A DNA stretch of 45,626 bases from a virus. Taxonomy: Duplodnaviria > Heunggongvirae > Uroviricota > Caudoviricetes. This document shows, piece after piece, positions 9,700-31,186 of this stretch. The translations under genes and the position numbers were made by a program. Location of the stretch: the IMG/VR virus record IMGVR_UViG_2579779076_000011. The stretch is one strand, 5' to 3'. The notes under the pieces are model-generated. The model ran no database searches. It was not told where the DNA came from and worked only from the letters and a program-made list of their open reading frames with translations. Within the stretch, counting starts at the first letter, position 1. Every line of letters begins with the position of its first letter.

Positions 9700-9921
9700 A
9701 TGTTTGGCGATAAACTGGAGTTACCACGGAACGGGCGGATAGTGCTCTATATTTCAGATTACAAAGTAACCAGGGCTGAGGTGTTGGAACCGGAAAAACA
9801 TCTGGTCACGTTACCGGACATTATTGAGTTGTATAAGCGGGTCGGATATGTGGACTTGCATCGCGATGATGTTCCCGTTGAGTGTATGGAATGTGAACAC
9901 CGGAGGTTTGAAGTTGATTGA
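9700..9921 (+). CDS. hypothetical protein (73 aa)
   Basis: Intact ORF with SD GGAGGGAAAGG before ATG. Confidence 0.45.
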   Translation: MFGDKLELPRNGRIVLYISDYKVTRAEVLEPEKHLVTLPDIIELYKRVGYVDLHRDDVPVECMECEHRRFEVD

Positions 9922-10011
9922 ATTGACTTAGAAAAAGCCCGGGGCTATAGTTTCCGCGCAGCCGCAAAATCGGTTGCCGGGATTGGCGTCCCGGATATCT
10001 AAGTGACGCAT

Positions 10012-10033
10012 AGCCGCGTTAGCGGTTTTTTTA
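10012..10033 (+). terminator. intrinsic terminator-like hairpin with T-run
   Basis: CCGC-GTTA-GCGG stem-loop followed by TTTTTTT, downstream of the early small-gene cluster. Confidence 0.4.
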
Positions 10034-10193
10034 TGTGTTAGGCACGGCCACATTCGCATTATGGTGGGCTGTGTGGGGGCTTCTGCGGAAGCGCCGGGTT
10101 CACTTAGCCGGTTACGCCAACCCTGCACAGTTCACCACCAGATGATTGGCGTCGCTGGTGGTGATGAAAAAAACACTAAGTGAGGCCACTGCG

Positions 10194-10982
10194 ATGACAA
10201 TCCAAATATCTGCGGAATCCCTTTCTCCGCTACATCATAACCAACTTCCCGTCATCACTACTGAATTGCTTGCCAGTTTGTATGGCACGGAAGTAAATGG
10301 TATCCAGCAAAACTTCAAGCGCAACATCGCCAGATTTGTCGTAGGAAAGCATTTTTTTAAGCTGGAAGGTAATGAATTACGCGACTTCAAAAACAGACTG
10401 ACAGATAGTCAGTCAGTTGCTAAACATACCCGATCCCTCATTCTCTGGACAGAACGCGGCGCAGCTCGCCATGCCAAAATGCTGGAAACAGAACAGGCCT
10501 GGGAAGTTTTCGAAAAGCTGGAAGATTGTTATTTTAGACAGCGTCCAGAGAGGCGGAGTACAACTACCGATGACCGTACTCCCTTACGTGATGCCGTTAA
10601 TATGCTGGTCGGTAAGAAAGGCATGATGTATCCCGATGCCTACACCATGATTCATCAACGCTTCGCCGTCTCTCACATAGAACAACTGTCACAGACGCAA
10701 ATGTTAGAGGCGATTGAATACATCCACTGCCTGCTACTCGATGAAAATCAGCCAACCATTCCAGATTTTTCTTTTATCACCACTATCAAAAATGGAAAAG
10801 TGACCAGGATGCGCCATGTTGCCAAAGGCGAACATCTGATGACGTTTGACGCTTTCAAAGAGATCGCTGAGCGGGCAGGGTATCTGGTGATCCACAGCGA
10901 CAACCTGCGAAGTATGACACTGGATAAATTGATGGTAATGGGGAAAAAGTCTGCTGTATCTGTTGCTGATTCAGCATTTTGA
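10194..10982 (+). CDS. ORF6N-domain protein, putative phage antirepressor
   Basis: N-terminal segment LPVITTELLASLYGTEVNGIQQNFKRNIARFVVGKHFFKLEGNELRDFK fits the ORF6N/KilA-N type domain; SD GTGAGG before ATG 10194 (ORF track extends to a TTG at 10146). Confidence 0.6.
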   Translation: MTIQISAESLSPLHHNQLPVITTELLASLYGTEVNGIQQNFKRNIARFVVGKHFFKLEGNELRDFKNRLTDSQSVAKHTRSLILWTERGAARHAKMLETEQAWEVFEKLEDCYFRQRPERRSTTTDDRTPLRDAVNMLVGKKGMMYPDAYTMIHQRFAVSHIEQLSQTQMLEAIEYIHCLLLDENQPTIPDFSFITTIKNGKVTRMRHVAKGEHLMTFDAFKEIAERAGYLVIHSDNLRSMTLDKLMVMGKKSAVSVADSAF

Positions 10983-12083: not shown

Positions 12084-12535
12084 GAATTCCCTTTAGAGTA
12101 AGGATTGGTTTTTAAGACGCGGTCTGTAATCAGTTCCGAGAGCTACAGTAAACAACGCTGAGCACTGAACGCATCACAGGCAAGGTAAAAGGTGATATCG
12201 GCAAAGGCTGTGAAACCTTTAATTCAACAGATGGGAACGGTATGCACAGGATCCTGTAACGACGCTCCCAAAACCGGAAACCTGCAGGGCATGTTTTCGC
12301 TGCTGAACTTAATATACGAACCTGCACTATCATGAACATATTTTATATCGTTATACCCCGAGTGATTGTGCCCGGCAATGGATAGTGTCCTGGAGGAACT
12401 ATTTCTACTGTAAAAGGTAGACATTTAATTTCAGTGTGGAATTATTCCCTGCTGTTAATAACAATGGCTGTATATGGCACCGAGTAGGCATTGATTTTTT
12501 TAAATTCAATTGCGTTATTAATATTACTTCATTTT

Positions 12536-13096
12536 TTATTTTAAAGTACAGCCTGCCCGAAATGCACTGCTAATTTCAACATATTCCGCTCTGGCCGTAC
12601 CTCTAAGTTTCTGAGACTCACGTTCAAAACTCGCCAAATCTTCCTTACATTTTGCCGAAGTAGACTGGAATCCTTTCCCGCACATCTGAAATGTGACTGT
12701 CGGATCCGCAAATCGGGTACGCTGGGCGTAAGCCTGGCAAACAGCGGATGCCCTCGCTTGTTTTTGTCGTGGGCTTAACGGGCGTGCTGGTGTGGCCTGT
12801 TCTGCCCTCTCCATTTTCAGGCGGTAGCAGCTTAAATTACGAGAGGCGATCACCTTTTTAATAGCCTGGGCGCGGCGATAATTTGAATTAAATTCAGGAT
12901 GAGATGATGGATTAAGGTTGAGCAATGGCTCTATATTATCTTCTGCCTGGCAAAGCTGTGAATCGGTGTACTGCGCAAGTTTTGCCGCCTCGATTGCAGC
13001 CGGATCTGGTTGTGAATTTTTTTGGGTATGGCTTACACATCCGGACAGCGTAAATCCAGCGGTCAGTGCTAAGATGATTTTTGATATTCCGTTCAT
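12536..13096 (-). CDS. lipoprotein, unknown function
   Basis: Signal peptide with lipobox LSGC; several Cys; SD AGGAA. Confidence 0.5.
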   Translation of the reverse strand: MNGISKIILALTAGFTLSGCVSHTQKNSQPDPAAIEAAKLAQYTDSQLCQAEDNIEPLLNLNPSSHPEFNSNYRRAQAIKKVIASRNLSCYRLKMERAEQATPARPLSPRQKQARASAVCQAYAQRTRFADPTVTFQMCGKGFQSTSAKCKEDLASFERESQKLRGTARAEYVEISSAFRAGCTLK

Positions 13097-13227
13097 TTTC
13101 TATTCCTGTTTCGATGTTTTGGTGGTGCACTTTCCCCACTCGGATAAGATTATGCATTCGGATTCGAGTGATGAGGCAACGCCATATAGGCGATGGCAGC
13201 CAGCACGATGGTGATTAAAATATTTAA

Positions 13228-14463
13228 TCAGAATTTCCGTTCTTTCCAGCGTTTAACCAACGCGGCCATGTTCAGCGGCCATAATTTAGGCTCAATCACT
13301 TTGCCTTCAAACATCGCGCCGAGCTCAATACCTAGGGCAAAATGTACGGTCATTGTTTCAGGGTTGACGGCCATCAGCTCTGCGTCTAGTAAGTCGTGTA
13401 TCGTTGGAGTCAACAACAGGCCATTATCAGCGCTAAAATTGCCTGAGGTAGCTGGCTCAATGTGCGCCGCTTGCAATCGTTCGCCGTTCTGCCAGCCAGT
13501 CACCGCGCAACGGCCAGCAAAATTATTCCATACCCATTCAACAAACTGCATATGCGCCGTCGTGTCGCGCTGCTCAACGATGCGCTGCGCGGTTCGGGTA
13601 CTGTGGAGTTTGACAGGTTGGCCAAGCGCGGGCGCGGGTTTCTCTTCCTCCACGACGACCACTACTTCCTGCGACATGATGATTCGATCATCGGCTACCA
13701 GTTCCGGAACAACGTCGGCCAGCTTCTCGGCTTCTCGGATGATTTGCTTTTCTTCCTGATCATCCAGGTACCGCTGCACCAGTTCAATGGTCGTGGTGGC
13801 TTCATGCTGGTGTTTGTGGATATAAAGCTCAACATCACGACGCTGGCTGGCTGGAATGTGTTTTGCCAGAAAATCCTGTAGGACGCGATTATCCAGCTTT
13901 GTCGTAACTTTTGATGTCATGCTCACAGAATCATACCGTTTCGGTGTTTCCATCTGCGTTGATTGCAGGCCTGGTAATTCGGTGTTGATTTGAGCGGAAA
14001 CCTTGCGCGGGATGATTGTCGGCGTAAATGCTGGCGTGCTGGCCTGGGACGTGCCACGGCGACGGGCATTCTCCCAAAGGGCTTCTGTTTCAGGGTTTTT
14101 GCGTGCGCCTGGCTTTTGCATAGGCATAGTGCGAATCAGCGCTTCCCAGCCCATATTGACCTTCTGTTTGGCCTCGCGGCGTTTATCGGCCAGCGTAGGT
14201 TTTGATGGTCGTTTTTTGGAGAGCGCTTTCTCTGGTTTTAATTTGATGCCGCGCGATAAACCATTTATCAGTGTTGGATGCACTGATAAGGCTTTGGCCA
14301 ATTGCAAACCGTTTAAATTGCTGCCATCTGTATAAGCGTACATAAACAAATCCGCCCAGCCATCATGTTGAGGGGTCATACCCACGCTGGTTAAGGCTGC
14401 GCGAATCTCTTTTTTGCGAGCTTTGTCCAAGTTAAATTTTGGGGTTTTATTTCGCTTAGTCAT
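13228..14463 (-). CDS. HNH-type nuclease domain protein (C-terminal HNH), N-terminal basic low-complexity region
   Basis: C-terminal GRCAVTGW..AAHI..NGLLLTPTIHDLLD fits an HNH-like motif; N-terminal ~250 aa Lys/Arg-rich with no recognised domain. Confidence 0.55.
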   Translation of the reverse strand: MTKRNKTPKFNLDKARKKEIRAALTSVGMTPQHDGWADLFMYAYTDGSNLNGLQLAKALSVHPTLINGLSRGIKLKPEKALSKKRPSKPTLADKRREAKQKVNMGWEALIRTMPMQKPGARKNPETEALWENARRRGTSQASTPAFTPTIIPRKVSAQINTELPGLQSTQMETPKRYDSVSMTSKVTTKLDNRVLQDFLAKHIPASQRRDVELYIHKHQHEATTTIELVQRYLDDQEEKQIIREAEKLADVVPELVADDRIIMSQEVVVVVEEEKPAPALGQPVKLHSTRTAQRIVEQRDTTAHMQFVEWVWNNFAGRCAVTGWQNGERLQAAHIEPATSGNFSADNGLLLTPTIHDLLDAELMAVNPETMTVHFALGIELGAMFEGKVIEPKLWPLNMAALVKRWKERKF

Positions 14464-14543
14464 TTCAGTTCAGCACACTAATAATGGTAACCATGACCGC
14501 AGCAAACACGATCCCCGAAATATTCATTACTGCCATATATTGG

Positions 14544-15395
<852 letters not shown>

Positions 15396-15464
15396 TCATG
15401 TCAATTGACAACTTATAGTTCCCACTAGTTAGCATTAAGATTTTTACAGTGAGGAATAATCAAT

Positions 15465-15516
15465 GTCCGCTCCTGGCACAGAGTGGACGAACAACTGAAG
15501 ACCCGCTGTGAGCGAG
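15465..15516. repeat. structured repeat copy A (partial): hairpin + AACTGAAG spacer + CCGCTGTGAGCGAG
   Basis: GTCCGCTC-N8-GAGTGGAC stem, then GAACAACTGAAGAC, then CCGCTGTGAGCGAG; shares the core with copies B and C but lacks the distal arm. Confidence 0.45.
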
Positions 15517-15675
15517 AAACAGACATCACAACTCACAAGGATTATACGCAGTTTGTTATCCAAACATACGGGTGCCAAGTGTTATAATCCGGCACTAACA
15601 GCATGATGCTTGGAAGTACATTTAAATGTAAAATGATAGTGTACTCTGACTGAAGCCTGGTAAAAAGGAACTGAT

Positions 15676-17055
15676 ATGTACAACAACCTCTATGCCCTCA
15701 CAGAAAGCCTTTTCTGGGTTGATCGACTTTTAGATCAGGAATATGAAAATATTGGATTGAATGAATTGCTAATTGAGTTAGATGAATATAATAAAAGAAT
15801 AGATTCACTGATTATCGAGCAAGCAAATTCTGTACAGGAGTCTCGGCTAAATGTTTACATGGCGGGAAATCGTAATATTGAAAGGTATAAGAGTGGACTG
15901 TTTTCAATGGACAGAGTCATTCTTGATGATGTTCTGTATTCATTGAGCCTACGATACAGAGTGAGTCTAACAGAAAATGCATTTGAAAAAATTATTGTAA
16001 GCGATAGAAAAGAGAAGGTTGAACATCTCAGGAAGGAAATTGCTAGATTTATCAGGTTTGCTAAAGAAAACTTTGATCTTATCCGTGGTGAGTTTATCGT
16101 TTTTGTACGCAGCGAATCTTCTATTAAAGATTCGGAGAGGGCCAATGGAATTTTAGACGATAACTCTGATGCTAATTTTATATATCGATATCTCCCTCCT
16201 AACATTGCCCGTCTTTATGAAAATAGACTATCCGTAAAGAATATAGAACGTCTAGGTAATACAAATAAAATTCGGTTATTAAACAAAAATGTTTTATCTA
16301 ATGAAATTATGTTGGAAATTAAAGACTGTGAAAGTTTATATACAAATGGATATATGTATCAACATATAAAAAATGCCATTGATAATGATGATGGCTCCAT
16401 ATCTATGGAGCTTGTCATGGGAAATCATAGCGGAAAAAAAAGTTATGAACGGTGGGTGCAGGGAGCAAAAAACCGTACGGTTCTCTTTCATTATAAAAAC
16501 CTTATTACTGACCTTAACCAAGCGCATTCATGTAGAGCATCCCTGGGGGCATATTGCCCGTTTCATGGAGAGATTCTTCGTAAACTTGATCAAAAGAATG
16601 AAGTTCAGAGGGTTAAACTCTCTATAGACGTTCCATTCTTAGAGGGACTGACTCCAAGTGAACTCTACAAAATTAGAACTGACTACGAGCCGAGTTTTAA
16701 TTCTTTCCGCTCTGTACTACGTGAAGCTGCGTATGATATAGAAGCAGAAAGTGATCCATATAAGAGACAACTAATAAATCAACATTTTGTCGAGCGGGTG
16801 TGGGATGAAGGATTGACAGATATTGAGCAAAAAATACAAGCCTATAAGCGGAAGAGTAAAAAAGAACTTTTTCTTAACAGTGTGCCTTCATTGATAGGTT
16901 TTATTGGTGCACCAAATCCAGTGTCGTTGGCTACAGGAGCTTTTACGATTCTAAAAGATGTCTTTAATATTACAAGCCATTCTTCAGAAATAAAGAGCCA
17001 CCCTTCATATTTCCTTCTCATGATGTCAAAAGCCAAAAACAAACCTTATGACTGA
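15676..17055 (+). CDS. hypothetical protein (459 aa), AT-rich orphan cargo gene
   Basis: SD AAGGAA before ATG; Lys/Asn/Ile-rich composition typical of horizontally acquired cargo; no recognisable catalytic motif. Confidence 0.6.
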   Translation: MYNNLYALTESLFWVDRLLDQEYENIGLNELLIELDEYNKRIDSLIIEQANSVQESRLNVYMAGNRNIERYKSGLFSMDRVILDDVLYSLSLRYRVSLTENAFEKIIVSDRKEKVEHLRKEIARFIRFAKENFDLIRGEFIVFVRSESSIKDSERANGILDDNSDANFIYRYLPPNIARLYENRLSVKNIERLGNTNKIRLLNKNVLSNEIMLEIKDCESLYTNGYMYQHIKNAIDNDDGSISMELVMGNHSGKKSYERWVQGAKNRTVLFHYKNLITDLNQAHSCRASLGAYCPFHGEILRKLDQKNEVQRVKLSIDVPFLEGLTPSELYKIRTDYEPSFNSFRSVLREAAYDIEAESDPYKRQLINQHFVERVWDEGLTDIEQKIQAYKRKSKKELFLNSVPSLIGFIGAPNPVSLATGAFTILKDVFNITSHSSEIKSHPSYFLLMMSKAKNKPYD

Positions 17056-17170
17056 GGCAGTAGAAAATAAAGTGAAAATATATTCACTTAAGAAAGATGG
17101 TTCTAAAGGGACATAATTAGATTAACCCAGTGACCTGTTCCCCTTGAATCAACATAGGCTGTTGTTAGCT

Positions 17171-17234
17171 ACTTCCGCTTCTGACACGAAGCGGACAAAA
17201 ACTGAAGGTCCGCTGTGAGCGAGGAGCGGAAGTT
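17171..17234. repeat. structured repeat copy B (complete)
   Basis: ACTTCCGC..CCGCTTC-TGACAC-GAAGCGG..AACTGAAGGT..CCGCT-GTGAGCGAGG-AGCGG-AAGTT; the outer ends ACTTCCGC / GCGGAAGT are also inverted repeats. Confidence 0.5.
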
Positions 17235-17377
17235 GATTTTATTGAGAGTAAAACAGATCTATAGTAAATGGTCTTGTTATGTAGGGGATTTACGATAATT
17301 TTACTACCAAGGTCGTTAAAAATTCATATGAAATATCAACGATAGTGACCTATTTTTCATAAGGCCACTATATGAAT

Positions 17378-18040
17378 CTATTGTTCTATTTTAATTTTAT
17401 TTAACGTTATAGGGGCTGGGTTATAGCTAGGTATATATAATATCTCACTCCCTAGCTTGCGCTCTTTTATATTTACTTCTTTAGCGACAAGGTTACCGTC
17501 ATACAACCTAATAATCACGTAGTCTTTAGATTGATCATGAAAGTAACTAAATTCTTTTTTTAATGACGCTTGTTGTAAACCAATTAAGAAACTAAATGTC
17601 ATTATGGCAATAAGGGGAAGGGTTGCAGACCAAATTAAATAACTTGGATTACGTTTATGATTTTTAACAATTTTGTATATAATATAAGTAACTGTTGCTA
17701 TCGATAAACTTAAAACGAAAAAACCACCATATTCAGTCTTATGTCTATAAGACTGAACAATAAAAACAATCATGATAAAAACTGTAACTGCAGTAACTTT
17801 AACTGCTTTTACTTTACTTTCAGGCCATGGAGTAAAAAACATCAACATAACACAAATTATATTAAAAAATAAATATGACATACCCACGAATAAAAATTTA
17901 GAATCTAACGTTATAAACTCCATAGGATAATCAAAATGATATGCATAGCCATATTCAAATGAAATTGCAGACATATAAGATAGAACAGTTATTGCCAATA
18001 TTAGCAAGGCTTCCTTGCTTTTTATAAAGTCAATTATCAT
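17378..18040 (-). CDS. multi-pass membrane protein, unknown function (AT-rich orphan)
   Basis: Five to six hydrophobic helices in the first ~160 aa, soluble C-terminal ~60 aa; no clear SD (start uncertain). Confidence 0.5.
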   Translation of the reverse strand: MIIDFIKSKEALLILAITVLSYMSAISFEYGYAYHFDYPMEFITLDSKFLFVGMSYLFFNIICVMLMFFTPWPESKVKAVKVTAVTVFIMIVFIVQSYRHKTEYGGFFVLSLSIATVTYIIYKIVKNHKRNPSYLIWSATLPLIAIMTFSFLIGLQQASLKKEFSYFHDQSKDYVIIRLYDGNLVAKEVNIKERKLGSEILYIPSYNPAPITLNKIKIEQ

Positions 18041-18364
18041 GATGTTTGTTTTTTAATGAATAAAATAATCACTTACCAGACAGTTAATCTTCTTAATTGT
18101 CATTGTGTTAAGTGAACCCCGAATTTTTCTCAGTTCTTCTGAAGAAGTCCTCATGTATATGATAACAACCAAAAAAATTTTTTTCACTAATTATACTAAA
18201 ATCCATGAAGAATCAGCAGTGTGAAGCAGGGAGAACCTCTAACAAGAGACGCCGTCATTTTGTAAATTTCCCGGCAAACCAGAACATCTGCTTTTAGACA
18301 TAGGATTCAATGTGCTATTACGGCGAGCTGTTCCCACAGATTGATGGAGATAGATGTTAGCAAT

Positions 18365-18433
18365 GCCCGCTTTTGGTACGAAGCGGGCAAGCTAACTGAG
18401 TTGAAAGTTCGCTGTGAGCGAGGAGCGGAAGTT
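18365..18433. repeat. structured repeat copy C (complete)
   Basis: GCCCGCTT-N8-AAGCGGGC hairpin, spacer, then TTCGCTGTGAGCGAGGAGCGGAAGTT; the 3-prime 24 nt are identical to copy B. Confidence 0.5.
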
Positions 18434-18518
18434 CGTAATTGTTCTCGCAGCTAGGGTAGCTAAAAGACACGGCAGGCAAATGTCTACATGTAGGATACAC
18501 TTGCTATTATCAAGAATT

Positions 18519-19298
18519 TTAGTCCTGAAGCATTTTAACTTTCTTCTCATGTTTTTTATATTCGCCTTTTATCCATTCAGGTTCTTCCCGAATAGCTGAG
18601 CGCATACAGTATGTTGGGATATCATTCCAGAAAGCTGTAATCGCATCTGCAAACTCTATAAACTGTGTTTCTGTAACCTCAAGTTGCTCATGACGTAGAC
18701 TAAATCTGTAGCCTCTTGGAATATTGATATCCTGATAATACTCAGGATGCGCGACGGAAAGCACCCGATGGGCATGGCCATCACCGTGCTTATAAACATT
18801 AACCACTTGGCGACAGGCATCGATTTTTTCGTAATAAGCCTTGCTGGTGATATCCATCCCAATCCATTCTAGAATTTCAATTAGCCTTGGGAAGCTAATG
18901 TCCCAGATCATCGATGTTACGGATTTAGCGTCGAGCCAATGGCTGAATTCTCTGATACACTTCTCTCTAAGTTCCTTGTCGAACTGATGAAACATTCCTG
19001 CTGTCAGAGCAAGTGAAACCGTATTTTTCATATCACTGAGAGCAATCCAATGTGAAATTCCTTCATCATGAGCCTGTTCACAGATAGCCCCTTCGTCGTC
19101 ATAATCGGGGTCAAAACGCTTACCGGCGGCCTCATAGTAATCTTGTTCTCTCTGCCTGGCTTCAGCTTCAAGATCAGAATCGCTAAACTGCGAAAATAGA
19201 CGCTTTCTGGCTTCAGCAACATAAAAATTGTGTTTGTCGAGGAAGTAAGACCGATCAATGGTTGCAAAATAAAAAAGTGAAAAATCTTTGTTGCTCAT
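18519..19298 (-). CDS. hypothetical protein (259 aa), orphan cargo gene
   Basis: Good SD (GAGGGAG) before ATG 19298; acidic protein with His-rich patch (HGDGHAH); no family recognised. Confidence 0.6.
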   Translation of the reverse strand: MSNKDFSLFYFATIDRSYFLDKHNFYVAEARKRLFSQFSDSDLEAEARQREQDYYEAAGKRFDPDYDDEGAICEQAHDEGISHWIALSDMKNTVSLALTAGMFHQFDKELREKCIREFSHWLDAKSVTSMIWDISFPRLIEILEWIGMDITSKAYYEKIDACRQVVNVYKHGDGHAHRVLSVAHPEYYQDINIPRGYRFSLRHEQLEVTETQFIEFADAITAFWNDIPTYCMRSAIREEPEWIKGEYKKHEKKVKMLQD

Positions 19299-19712
19299 GG
19301 GGATCTCCCTCGTTTTGTCAGTTGTACAAGCCCCTGGAAGTAGGCTACTAATAAAGAAAAAATTACCTTTGAATAACTGTGCAAGATAGCAGTACGCCTA
19401 AAAGTAGTGCAAGTATCCCAACCAGGATAACGATGCGTTTTCAAATATCTGACTTAACGCTTGCGATATCCGCTCTGGCAACAAAGTAGACTGTCAGATT
19501 AAATTTGTCTTCACGCCATAGATGTGTCAGCTCATATCTTATCTAATACACACAACATTCTCTCATTCTTAGAGAATTAATCTTTTAAGGGTAGGTGTTG
19601 ACGTTAGAACAAAAGAATAGATATTTTTGAAGCATATAATATGAGCTATAACCATAGGACGCATATAAAAGCTTACGGTGTGGTCTTATAATTTGGCACA
19701 AATGATTTACTA

Positions 19713-19739
19713 ACCCGCTTCGGCGGGTCTTCTTTTTTA
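19713..19739 (+). terminator. intrinsic terminator (ACCCGC-TTCG-GCGGGT + T-run)
   Basis: GC stem with TTCG tetraloop followed by CTTCTTTTTTAT; a TATAAT hexamer lies ~25 nt upstream at 19686-19691. Confidence 0.5.
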
Positions 19740-28308: not shown

Positions 28309-29876
28309 CTGCTCAGCAGTTGCTCGGGCCTGACGGTAAAACGCCACTACGCCGTTACGCGGGGTATAACGGCGGCGGTCCCGGCTTCGGTGGCCAGCTG
28401 ATTGACTGGAATGCACCACAGCAAAGCGCCGATGCGGCACTGCTGCCTAATTTTTATCGCGGTAACGCGCGAGCAGACGATCTCGTTCGTAATAACGGCG
28501 TCGCGTCGAACGCCGTGCAGCTGCATCAGGATCATATCGTCGGCAATCTGTTTAAGTTGAGTTATCGCCCTAACTGGCGTTACATCGGGATATCTCGCGA
28601 GGACGCCAGGGCGCTGGCGCGTGACGTTGAGGTCGCGTGGACTGAATACGCCGAGGACCCTCACTGCACGATTGATATCGAGCGGAAACGGACGTTCACA
28701 ATGATGATTCGCGAAGGCGTGGCCACTCACGCGTTCAACGGTGAAACCTGCGTACAACCGGTGTGGGAGAGCTGCGCCGGCAGCGTTTTTCGGACGCGAT
28801 TCAAAATGGTCTCACCGAAACGAATTCGAAATCCTGGCTACGCAGCTGACACTCAATTTCGCCGCGCCGGTGTTGATATCGATAAAAACGGGGCCGCGGT
28901 TGGGTACTGGATAGCCGAGGATACCTATCCCCTCGGCGGAGTTGGTAAATGCCGGCGCATACCAGCAAAACTCAGCAGCGGCAGACACGCATTCATTCAC
29001 ATATTCGAGCCGCTCGAGGACGGACAAACCCGCGGAGATAACATTTTTTACAGCGTAATGGAGCGGCTGAAAATGCTCGATACGCTGCAGCAAACACAGC
29101 TGCAGAGCGCCATCGTGAAGGCGATGTACGCCGCCACAATCGAATCAGAGCTCGACAGCCAGCAGGCGTTTGAATATATCGCCGGCGCGGGTACTGATAT
29201 CGACTCGAACCCGCTGAGTTCGTTTATTCAGAGTTACGTGACGTACTACAACGGCGCAAATATCAAGCTCGGTGGTGTGAAAGTTCCCCACCTGCATCCC
29301 GGCGACAAACTCAGTTTACAGACCGCTCAGAATGCTGATGCTGGTTTCAGTTCGCTGGAAAAATCACTCCTGCGTTACGTTGCCGCTGGCGTCGGCGCGT
29401 CATATGAGGAACTGAGTCGGGACTACAGCCAGGTCAGTTACTCCAGCGCGCGGGCCAGCGCAAACGTGAGCTGGCGTTTTTTCATGGGCCGTCGACGTTT
29501 TATCGCCGCACGACAGGCGTCACTGATGTTCTGCTGCTGGTTTGAGGAAGCTCTGGCGCGCGGAGTTATCACCCTGCCACGCTCAGCGGTCCGGTCGTTT
29601 TATGAAGCGCGGAACTCCTGGACGAACGCGCTCTGGATCGGCGCTGGTCGCATGGCGATTGATGGGCTGAAAGAGGTTCAGGAGAGCGCCATGCGCATCA
29701 CGACTGGCCTCAGCACGTATCAGAACGAACTCGCGCTGCAGGGGCAGGACTACGAGGAGGTCATGGAACAACAGGAATACGAAATTCAGCGCCGGCGCGA
29801 AATGGGGCTGAGCGAACCATCCTGGTCAGTATCTCACCCCTCAAATACCAACGATAACGGCTGGGGAGGTAACTGA
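28305..29876 (+). CDS. portal protein (lambda gpB-like)
   Basis: 523 aa gene following gpW-like with 4 nt overlap; lambda B-type organisation. Confidence 0.85.
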   Translation: MTAQQLLGPDGKTPLRRYAGYNGGGPGFGGQLIDWNAPQQSADAALLPNFYRGNARADDLVRNNGVASNAVQLHQDHIVGNLFKLSYRPNWRYIGISREDARALARDVEVAWTEYAEDPHCTIDIERKRTFTMMIREGVATHAFNGETCVQPVWESCAGSVFRTRFKMVSPKRIRNPGYAADTQFRRAGVDIDKNGAAVGYWIAEDTYPLGGVGKCRRIPAKLSSGRHAFIHIFEPLEDGQTRGDNIFYSVMERLKMLDTLQQTQLQSAIVKAMYAATIESELDSQQAFEYIAGAGTDIDSNPLSSFIQSYVTYYNGANIKLGGVKVPHLHPGDKLSLQTAQNADAGFSSLEKSLLRYVAAGVGASYEELSRDYSQVSYSSARASANVSWRFFMGRRRFIAARQASLMFCCWFEEALARGVITLPRSAVRSFYEARNSWTNALWIGAGRMAIDGLKEVQESAMRITTGLSTYQNELALQGQDYEEVMEQQEYEIQRRREMGLSEPSWSVSHPSNTNDNGWGGN

Positions 29877-31186
29877 TGCCGTGGAACAATTTTCCGCACC
29901 TCGCCGCTAGGGCGTTCAATCAACCGCTTTTGCTGGAGCCCGCCTACGCGCGGGTATTTTTTTCTGCGCTGAGCGACCGGTTCGGTACCGGGCGACTGAT
30001 TGATACAGCGTCAGGAGAGGTAATGAACAGCGACGAAATGAACGCGCTCGCGATGGGGTGGGACAGCAGCGAGCGAACACGCCAGAAATCGTATCGCGTG
30101 GAGCGTGGTATAGCCGTTCTGCCGGTTACCGGGACGCTGGTTCATAAATTGGGTTATATCAATCCGGTCAGCGGGATGAGTGGTTACGACGGAATCGCAA
30201 AACGCCTGCAGCAGGCGATTTCTGATCCCGATGTTAAGGGGATCCTGCTGGATATTGATTCCCCTGGCGGTGAGGTCGCCGGCGCGTTTGATACCGCTGA
30301 TTTAATCGCCCGGGCGCGAGAGCAAAAACCGGTGTGGGCGCTGGCCAGCGATACGGCCTGCAGCGCCGCATATTTGCTGGCGTCAGCGTGTTCGCGCCGG
30401 CTGATAACGCAGACCGGCACGGTTGGTTCAATCGGTGTCCTGATGGCTCACCGCTGCGTCGAAAAGGCGCTGGAGATTGCCGGCGTTGACGTGACGCTGA
30501 TTTACGCCGGCGCGCACAAAGTCGACGGGAACCCGTATTCCCAGCTGCCCGACGACGTTCGCGACGAATTCCAGCTGAGTATTAACAGCACACGCGAGCA
30601 GTTCGCGCAAAAAGTCTCGGATTATACCGGGCTGAAAAAATCCAGGGTGCTGGCCACAGAGGCCGCAGTATTTATCGGCGCGGACGCGATTAAATCTGGT
30701 CTCGCTGATCAACTCGTTAATTACGCGGACGCTATCGCAGTGATGGCCGACGCACTGAAACCAAAAACGGAGCGATTTATGCCAGGTACAACAGAAACCA
30801 CGGCGGAGACCACGACCACAGAACAAACCGCGGCTACGACTACGGTCGCGCCGGTTGAGTCCAACGCGGAGCAGATTCGCGCGGACGCCGCATCGAGCGA
30901 ACTGGCACGCGTGATGGCCATCATCAACTGTCCCGAAGCTGTTGGGCGCGAGGCGCAGGCAAAAGCGCTCGCTGCCGTCCCCGGGATGACGGTCGGGCAG
31001 GCGCAGGCTGTCCTCGCGGCAGCACCGCAAACAGCGCAGGCGCGGACAGAAACGGCGCTCGATACACTCATGAGCACTGAATCACCGGAAACTATTCAGG
31101 ATGCCGGCAGCACCACGGCAACAGGAACAACCGCAAACGTCTCGATGCTGGTCGCGGCAGGGCGTTCAATTTTAGGGGATGAATAA
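29876..31186 (+). CDS. head maturation protease / scaffold (lambda gpC-like, S49 peptidase family)
   Basis: S49/ClpP-like motif GILLDIDSPGGEVAGAFD; 436 aa, close to the lambda C size; Ala/Thr-rich C-terminal scaffold-like region. Confidence 0.85.
   Translation: MPWNNFPHLAARAFNQPLLLEPAYARVFFSALSDRFGTGRLIDTASGEVMNSDEMNALAMGWDSSERTRQKSYRVERGIAVLPVTGTLVHKLGYINPVSGMSGYDGIAKRLQQAISDPDVKGILLDIDSPGGEVAGAFDTADLIARAREQKPVWALASDTACSAAYLLASACSRRLITQTGTVGSIGVLMAHRCVEKALEIAGVDVTLIYAGAHKVDGNPYSQLPDDVRDEFQLSINSTREQFAQKVSDYTGLKKSRVLATEAAVFIGADAIKSGLADQLVNYADAIAVMADALKPKTERFMPGTTETTAETTTTEQTAATTTVAPVESNAEQIRADAASSELARVMAIINCPEAVGREAQAKALAAVPGMTVGQAQAVLAAAPQTAQARTETALDTLMSTESPETIQDAGSTTATGTTANVSMLVAAGRSILGDE

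Follow-up and report, generated by a model that had tools for sequence, protein, structure and literature searches.

Tandem double-site repeats and a linked 200-aa tyrosine recombinase: a proposed integron-like cassette-exchange system in Enterobacterales mobile DNA

Introduction

In integrons, co-oriented and imperfectly palindromic repeats of ~60-80 nt separate cassettes that mostly hold a single gene. A tyrosine recombinase is tied to these arrays, and many arrays are found without it (integron arrays without an integrase are termed CALINs). Arrays with the same general features are described here from a 45,626-nt stretch of viral DNA (Duplodnaviria; Heunggongvirae; Uroviricota; Caudoviricetes; IMG/VR record IMGVR_UViG_2579779076_000011), which in its full length is referred to as the window, and from related loci in bacterial chromosomes, plasmids and viral contigs. 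A first-pass annotation of the window, made from the sequence alone, had reported three copies of a repeat (A, B and C) bounding three orphan genes. We favor the reading that an integron-like cassette-exchange system, with a recombinase and sites different from those of integrons, uses these repeats for recombination, and on the sequence comparisons presented below we would put the probability of this reading at roughly 0.6.

The likeness to integrons extends to gene content. The same cassettes appear in different replicons, and the cargo includes GNAT, NUDIX, toxin-like and anti-phage defence genes; integrons with defence cassettes have been described (bioRxiv 10.1101/2024.07.02.601686, 10.1101/2024.07.02.601719). 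The differences lie in the enzyme and its presumed sites. The linked recombinase falls outside the IntI clade: its score with the integron-integrase model TIGR02249 is 15.9 bits, far below the cut-off of 265, and a length of 200 aa leaves no room for the IntI-specific insertion. The repeats are conserved in sequence and not in structure, lack the RYYYAAC/GTTRRRY (R''/R') boxes of attC, and each combine two sites whose centres differ. In these arrays the recombinase gene is placed within a repeat, whereas that of an integron stands at the array end beside attI. Cassette genes also face either way and often come with regulators of their own, an arrangement that, unlike in integrons, implies no shared promoter.

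Other systems resemble the arrays in part. The pdif modules of Acinetobacter plasmids are accessory-gene modules bounded by 11-6-11 XerC/XerD sites that are acted on by the host Xer enzymes and alternate in orientation. The present arrays likewise place accessory modules between short arm-centre-arm core sites in varied plasmid contexts, but their sites are co-oriented doublets with GTCCGCT arms and are linked to a dedicated small recombinase. A relationship to Xer/dif was rejected, as the GTCCGCT arms have no resemblance by eye to the dif sequence. Repetitive extragenic palindromic (REP) elements, bacterial interspersed mosaic elements (BIMEs) and REP doublets forming hairpins (REPINs) depend on an HUH/Y1 REP-associated tyrosine transposase (RAYT), occur in hundreds of copies in core intergenic regions and carry a GTAG head. 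The repeats described here are similarly doublets of inverted short palindromes, and the gene of the presumed enzyme has these same repeats, inverted, on either side; however, that enzyme belongs to PF00589, copies are few per genome and confined to mobile DNA, and there is no GTAG head. The DNA invertases FimB and FimE are of similar size (about 200 aa) and have short inverted repeats as their substrate, as is proposed here, but their similarity to the linked recombinase is weak, and Fim recombinases invert one promoter segment without cassette arrays. In engineered cassette exchange, a heterospecific pair of lox or FRT sites, with shared arms and different centres, supports an in-register swap by double reciprocal recombination. 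That arrangement is a laboratory design, and a natural counterpart in the present arrays is a proposal.

Anatomy of the repeats

Repeat limits were taken from a hidden Markov model (HMM) of related copies searched with nhmmer, which recovered A, B and C at E-values of 2e-13 to 4e-16 in the window. All three lie on the + strand where the first-pass annotation had placed them, within slightly wider limits. That each of the three genes is bounded by repeats also proved correct, with the third gene (259 aa) closed by a newly found degenerate copy, D, which alone gives a weak HMM match (E about 0.2-1). The array in the window is laid out as follows.

15461-15527, + strand: repeat A, with site I at 15461-15489 (AATGTCCGCT-CCTGGCACAG-AGTGGACG), a linker, and site II at 15502-15527; nhmmer E=2e-13
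15528-17169, + strand: cassette 1, comprising an orphan 459-aa gene (15676-17055) and the upstream region belonging to it
17170-17235, + strand: repeat B, with site I at 17170-17197, the linker AAAAACTGAAG, and site II at 17206-17235; nhmmer E=4e-16
17236-18360, - strand: cassette 2, the gene of a 220-aa predicted membrane protein (17378-18040), from open reading frame (ORF) call and annotation
18361-18434, + strand: repeat C, with site I at 18361-18389, a 17-nt linker, and site II at 18407-18434; nhmmer E=5e-16
18435-19464, - strand: cassette 3, a 259-aa gene (18519-19298) of PHROG 19541, function unknown
19465-19534, + strand: repeat D, with a degenerate site I at 19465-19503 (ATATCCGCTC-TGGCAAC-AAAGTAGAC) and then the array-terminal motif CTGTCAGATTAAATTTG...GCCATAGATGTGTCAGCTCA; right edge of the variable slot

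Alignment of 49-50 copies from E. coli, Pantoea, Klebsiella, Buttiauxella, Leclercia, Erwinia, Providencia, Rahnella and other genera gave the consensus CAACGTCCGCT-TCTGGCACrA-AGCGGAC, then 12-20 variable nt, then GTCCGCT-rTGAGCGAGG-AGCGGACGTTG. Each repeat of ~65-75 nt is made of one 7-10-bp arm present four times, as two inverted pairs around two differing and highly conserved centres. Site I reads (A)ACGTCCGCT - TCTGGCACRA - AGCGGAC and site II reads GTCCGCT - RTGAGCGAGG - AGCGGACGTT, and both follow the pattern GTCCGCT-N10-AGCGGAC, with inverted arms around a short conserved centre as in a core-type site. Tyrosine-recombinase core sites, lox, FRT and dif among them, have this layout of inverted arms around a centre. 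If arms of 8 bp are assumed, our reading of the alignment would give centres of 8 bp. The most conserved columns are GAGCGA and TGGCAC, which are the presumed hairpin loops, and in Enterobacterales repeats the cargo-side arms are the better conserved.

Several finer points of the first-pass annotation could be checked against this alignment. Copy A, which had been called partial, is nearly full length, its decay being limited to the final arm of the second half (AACAGAC for AGCGGAC). The identical 24 nt reported for B and C are present as the exact 24-mer CGCTGTGAGCGAGGAGCGGAAGTT, with 0 matches in 100 shuffles, and the pattern of the first hairpin was counted 6 times where 0.43 would be expected. 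The consensus matches neither REP nor attC, in agreement with the earlier opinion. The description of the repeats as structured did not hold. A two-hairpin fold and a nested fold are both possible, each with 80-81% pairing in 49 copies, and shuffled controls did as well in 204/500 and 236/500 cases for the two folds, with no covariation beyond controls. The compensating base change that had been proposed in the first stem of A dissolves in the same alignment, where the C-G pair is seen 4 times against ~3.8 expected for independent columns. As the pairing potential equals that of shuffled controls, the arms are kept as sequence and not as structure.

Distribution, array layout and cargo

Repeats resembling B were found in 956/5426 complete E. 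coli genomes, each with 1-4 places detectable by BLAST, and among the 60 matches listed no annotated feature lay beneath the repeat. They also occur in 342 plasmids, chiefly of Klebsiella, Pantoea, Escherichia and Enterobacter, and in at least 120 IMG/VR viral contigs. Every context inspected was mobile DNA, comprising CP4-like and tRNA-Leu islands, P2-like phage, prophages and large plasmids. Megablast of the region against GenBank phages gave no match, and sensitive blastn recovered just 3 phage records with the repeat, and 3 with the recombinase.

Within arrays the repeats keep to one strand. All 14 copies in 24 kb of a Pantoea plasmid are co-oriented, as are arrays of 3 to 7 copies per locus elsewhere, and across 120 IMG/VR viral loci 83/94 adjacent pairs share an orientation at a median spacing of 1583 nt. 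A single ORF accounts for the content of 61% of 120 cassettes. Copies inside one array are only 64-94% identical over about 30 nt, and in the Pantoea array they often lie 15-60 nt past stop codons.

Cargo in the viral-contig arrays includes Shosta, Septu, Shedu, PARIS, dGTPase, type IV restriction and AbiL proteins, and that of plasmid arrays includes GNAT, MFS, LysR, SDR, NUDIX and ars genes. Regulator-plus-target pairs are among the cassettes. An AraC + TauE/SafE pair (locus L006, 10690-12385) has ~80% identical copies elsewhere in several E. coli chromosomes, and one such copy might be the source locus of the captured cassette.

Cassette sharing and breakpoints

Individual cassettes are shared between distant contexts. 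A NUDIX cassette is common to an E. coli chromosome, a Pantoea plasmid and a Buttiauxella contig at 90-93% identity, an ars cassette is common to Pantoea and Leclercia, and a cassette of phage 899 is also present in a Pantoea contig. The 459-aa cassette of the window is found, 89-91% identical and likewise preceded by a repeat, in a CP4-like island of 177 other E. coli genomes; its homology to the O157 island copy starts inside site II of repeat A, at 15505. Homology between shared cassettes breaks directly before TGAGCGA on the left and/or directly after CTGGCAC on the right, and the neighbouring linker or recombinase gene varies case by case. In two alleles of one E. coli island whose flanks are 98% identical, a block has been swapped exactly between a site II and a downstream site I. 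Over 148 loci, 1060 internal ends of homology blocks were counted; 20.6% of them fall no more than 15 nt from a site, where 1.5% would be expected.

The window itself provides a comparison of this kind. It matches a defective lambdoid/P2-hybrid prophage beside tRNA-Ser and mtfA, and the 5-kb region tested is identical in E. coli E24377A and 3 more genomes and 99.7-99.9% identical in another 2. The right flank is common to 449 genomes, which supplied the sister prophages for comparison. To the left of repeat A the slot contains the following features.

12466-12490, + strand: degenerate site I in the backbone (GGCTGTATA-TGGCAC-CGAGTAGGCA); left edge of the variable cassette slot; exact sequence present once in the window
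12491-15460, - strand: irregular cargo block without internal repeats, holding the next three features
12536-13096, - strand: 186-aa ORF, from ORF call and annotation
13228-14463, - strand: 411-aa HNH protein, from ORF call, annotation and Pfam
14544-15395, - strand: GIY-YIG defence protein PD-T4-3 (PADLOC E=7e-138), a single-gene anti-phage system directly left of repeat A

Homology of JJ1887-type and E62-type prophages to the window reaches the backbone site at 12466-12490 and then ends. In the sister prophages, the counterpart of this site is followed by a linker and site II, and the block at 12491-15460 is missing. Between the backbone site and a D-type terminal site they carry one or two different cassettes, where the window carries several.

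Over 160 nt, repeat D matches the site that ends the JJ1887 prophage array at 87.7% identity; its identity to the equivalent site in the phage 899 array is 72%. Array ends consist of site I followed by a common motif, CTGTCAGATTA...GCCATAGATGTGTCAGCTCA, that is missing from ordinary repeats; the motif lies at 19490-19534 in the window, 7873-7920 in locus L093, 10775-10819 in L007 and from 10263 in L002. It could be a special terminal site or a site for an accessory protein. A canonical intrinsic terminator (ACCCGCTTCGGCGGGT followed by a T-run) is present at 19713-19728 of the window, exactly where homology to ST131-type sister prophages restarts. A search for tRNA or tmRNA remnants that could represent att sites detected none.

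None of the three cassette genes of the window has a functional match in Pfam, NCBIfam, PADLOC or PHROG. The 459-aa protein has no match of any kind in these four collections, and the 220-aa membrane protein gave only a sub-threshold hint of a seven-transmembrane (7TM) Pfam family. With PD-T4-3 beside repeat A, the slot appears to be a defence hotspot, which makes the three orphan cassette genes candidates for defence functions.

The linked tyrosine recombinase

In CFT073 and Pantoea, a 200-aa gene annotated as a "site-specific integrase" lies within the array, antisense to the repeats. WP_001305361 is one example of the recombinase. The protein matches PF00589 at 69.1 bits (cut-off 27.1), and its predicted fold matches XerA, XerH, Cre and lambda Int (E 5e-8 to 1e-5). 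R51, K79, H148, R151, H174 and Y183 are invariant in 34 homologues, and we infer that they are the catalytic residues. In addition to its low integron-integrase score, the recombinase reached only 25.5 and 18.2 bits against two Fim-type invertase models (cut-offs 222 and 221) and fell far under the Xer model cut-offs as well. Its relatives form at least 7988 clusters at 90% identity, all with generic names. The recombinase is present in about 980/5426 E. coli genomes and 406 plasmids, and relatives more than 60% identical occur throughout the Gamma- and Betaproteobacteria. A search around non-enterobacterial recombinases with a 12-mer and 2 mismatches was too noisy in GC-rich DNA, and our statements about sites are confined to the Gammaproteobacteria.

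The link of the recombinase to the sites is genetic, in that the two centres enclose its gene. The recombinase unit, of ~710 bp, recurs as a discrete block in many contexts and, read in the orientation of the repeats, is composed of the site I left arm and centre, a hairpin, the recombinase gene, and the site II centre and right arm. Repeats were found in 12/12 Enterobacterales loci fetched via the recombinase, with a relative orientation that is nearly always the same. An internally deleted unit of 251 bp is present in locus L090 at 6001-6251. The CFT073 recombinase (locus L003, 12089-12691) is 100% identical to a plasmid protein of Pantoea ananatis LMG 5342 (NC_016817, 131282-131881), an identity that points to very recent intergenus transfer.

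A different arrangement was observed in Pseudomonas (loci L038-L085, about 9895-10650), where the recombinase gene lies between near-perfect 25-bp inverted repeats, GTCCGCTTCTGGCCGGTTAGCGACC. Each of these 25-bp ends is a full site, the two having one centre in common, and a 25-mer search found few solo copies nearby. With so few solo copies, the unit looks there like a stand-alone insertion sequence (IS)-like or invertible element.

Proposed mechanism and alternative explanations

We propose that each repeat would comprise two tandem core-type sites for a small tyrosine recombinase, of 200 aa, that consists of hardly more than a catalytic domain. A cargo cassette would span the site II centre of one repeat to the site I centre of the next, and the linker between site I and site II would form a slot that in some arrays is occupied by the recombinase gene. 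Recombination between like sites (I x I, II x II), either between arrays or between neighbouring repeats, would result in cassette excision, insertion or swap. Because the two centres differ, sites I and II should not recombine together, which would keep exchange in register. The recombinase presumably binds and cuts these sites, its substrate would be double-stranded DNA, and the pathway may be circle excision and insertion or a double-site exchange. The recombinase-less array of the window, with three cassettes in a lambdoid prophage slot, would have been built in the past or may be acted on in trans.

Two of the functions suggested in the first-pass annotation agree with this proposal. The suggestion of a cassette-exchange hotspot with the repeats as its recombination sites is backed by the sister prophages, with different cassettes in one slot and breakpoints at the repeats, and by the same repeat-bounded cassettes in unrelated replicons. 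The suggestion of binding sites for an unknown factor is probably right as well, with the 200-aa tyrosine recombinase, an enzyme encoded within one repeat unit, as the candidate.

A number of observations weigh against a dedicated site-specific system. No recombinase gene was found in the window by tblastn, and only 2/120 repeat-bearing viral loci contain one within the stretch fetched. A strict site motif lies downstream of only 19/77 recombinase genes, compared with a 4% background, and no arrays were evident around the Pseudomonas units. Some junctions are irregular: neither the HMM nor the prophage comparison found a site II at the left edge of the block at 12491-15460, and the homology of the 459-aa cassette stops 68 nt short of repeat B. 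Only 1/5 AlphaFold runs gave a good model of the recombinase. Copy B forms a long nested hairpin (z = -5.2), and a folded single-strand substrate would be compatible with conserved sequence. Lastly, crossovers are resolved only to the inside of a conserved site, so homologous recombination across the repeats would leave the same junctions.

The recombinase units raise the alternative that the repeat is itself mobile, a gene-less derivative, in the manner of a miniature inverted-repeat transposable element (MITE), of an IS-like element encoding the 200-aa recombinase, with the cassettes as passengers between insertions. The outer arms and centres of the repeat are also the ends of the 710-bp unit, which is itself a discrete block in many contexts, and there is a size series from the full unit through the 251-bp deletion derivative to the 65-75-nt repeats; shared termini and deletion intermediates of this kind are expected of a MITE family, and in Pseudomonas the unit has perfect inverted ends of about 25 bp. 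Composite transposition, however, does not predict that the linkers flanking a shared cassette differ on both sides, as they do in 3/3 examples, and the cargo-side arms are the better conserved in Enterobacterales. Among the few alleles compared, differences consist of block replacement between sites and never of a lone repeat gained or lost, and neither an empty site nor a target duplication was seen, although these were only partly looked for. We consider this origin unlikely. Less likely again is that the repeats are short conserved linkers for general or phage homologous recombination (RecA, Red/Rad52-like annealases) with no dedicated enzyme today. Short-homology mosaicism is well known in lambdoid phages, most arrays, that of the window included, have no nearby recombinase gene, B and C share 24 identical nt, and junctions could fall anywhere in the conserved stretch as far as they can be resolved. 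Such recombination would nevertheless leave unexplained the arm-centre-arm anatomy, the near-constant co-orientation, and the placement of a recombinase gene exactly between the two centres in many genera, and copies 64-94% identical over about 30 nt within an array would be poor substrates for it.

The first-pass annotation had also suggested RNA processing or stability elements, a reading that can be widened to terminators or insulators between acquired genes. The repeats are intergenic, GC-rich inside AT-rich DNA and capable of forming hairpins, and their frequent position 15-60 nt after stop codons in the Pantoea array would suit such a role. We nonetheless regard it as very improbable, given that covariation is absent, the "loops" are more conserved than the stems, and the single-strand folds of A, B and C differ (z = -0.8 for A). 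As had been noted from the start, the repeats are not intrinsic terminators: they have no T-run, and no GC-rich hairpin with a T-run was predicted to overlap A, B, C or D. No Rfam model matched the repeats at the gathering score, and at E<=1 the only hit was a sub-threshold CRISPR-repeat match over repeat C (23 bits against a gathering score of 35, E = 0.87), which we take to be chance. Flanking genes show no consistent orientation relative to the repeat strand (92 same, 107 opposite), and repeat C is antisense to both of its neighbours.

Other features of the prophage

An ISEc62 element (IS21 family, istA/istB) interrupts the portal gene at about 28955-30921 of the window (34456-36422 in L001), and with this gene split the prophage is defective. 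At 9945-10142, isrK and a C4 antisense RNA with a1/b1 target sites lie directly upstream of an ORF6N (antirepressor-like) gene; this region is a P1/P7-type c4-ant immunity module within a lambdoid/P2-hybrid prophage. Locus L091 (NZ_CP148379), annotated as an 8.4-kb plasmid, carries lambdoid cI/cro/O/P, a frameshifted recombinase copy, an AAA ATPase + HNH pair and hokD. This record is the same prophage region as in the window, and it may represent an excised or misassembled fragment.

Significance

The open-access literature searched, including a tyrosine-recombinase classification paper (PMC8138268), describes neither the repeats nor the recombinase nor the arrays; a prior description outside that literature is possible. 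Taken as a whole, the system is best supported as a site-specific-recombination cassette platform that resembles the integron in function and is unrelated to it in recombinase and sites. More tentatively, and with slightly less than even odds in our estimation, Enterobacterales and related Gammaproteobacteria may possess a previously undescribed cassette platform, integron-like in function, in which a minimal 200-aa recombinase, tandem heterospecific double sites and a recombinase gene that occupies a site serve to shuffle defence and accessory genes among prophages, satellite-like islands and plasmids.

Gene traffic of this sort has mostly been described just as "hotspots". If the proposal is correct, it would supply a mechanism for the single-gene movement of defence and accessory genes among prophage hotspots, islands and plasmids of E. 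coli, Klebsiella, Pantoea and their relatives. The repeats would then be a cheap sequence flag for cassettes, and hence for new defence genes, and the 459-, 220- and 259-aa orphans of the window would be candidates for new defence or accessory functions. The 200-aa recombinase and its two heterospecific ~25-bp sites would form a compact natural tool for cassette exchange, and integron-like platforms would have arisen more than once.

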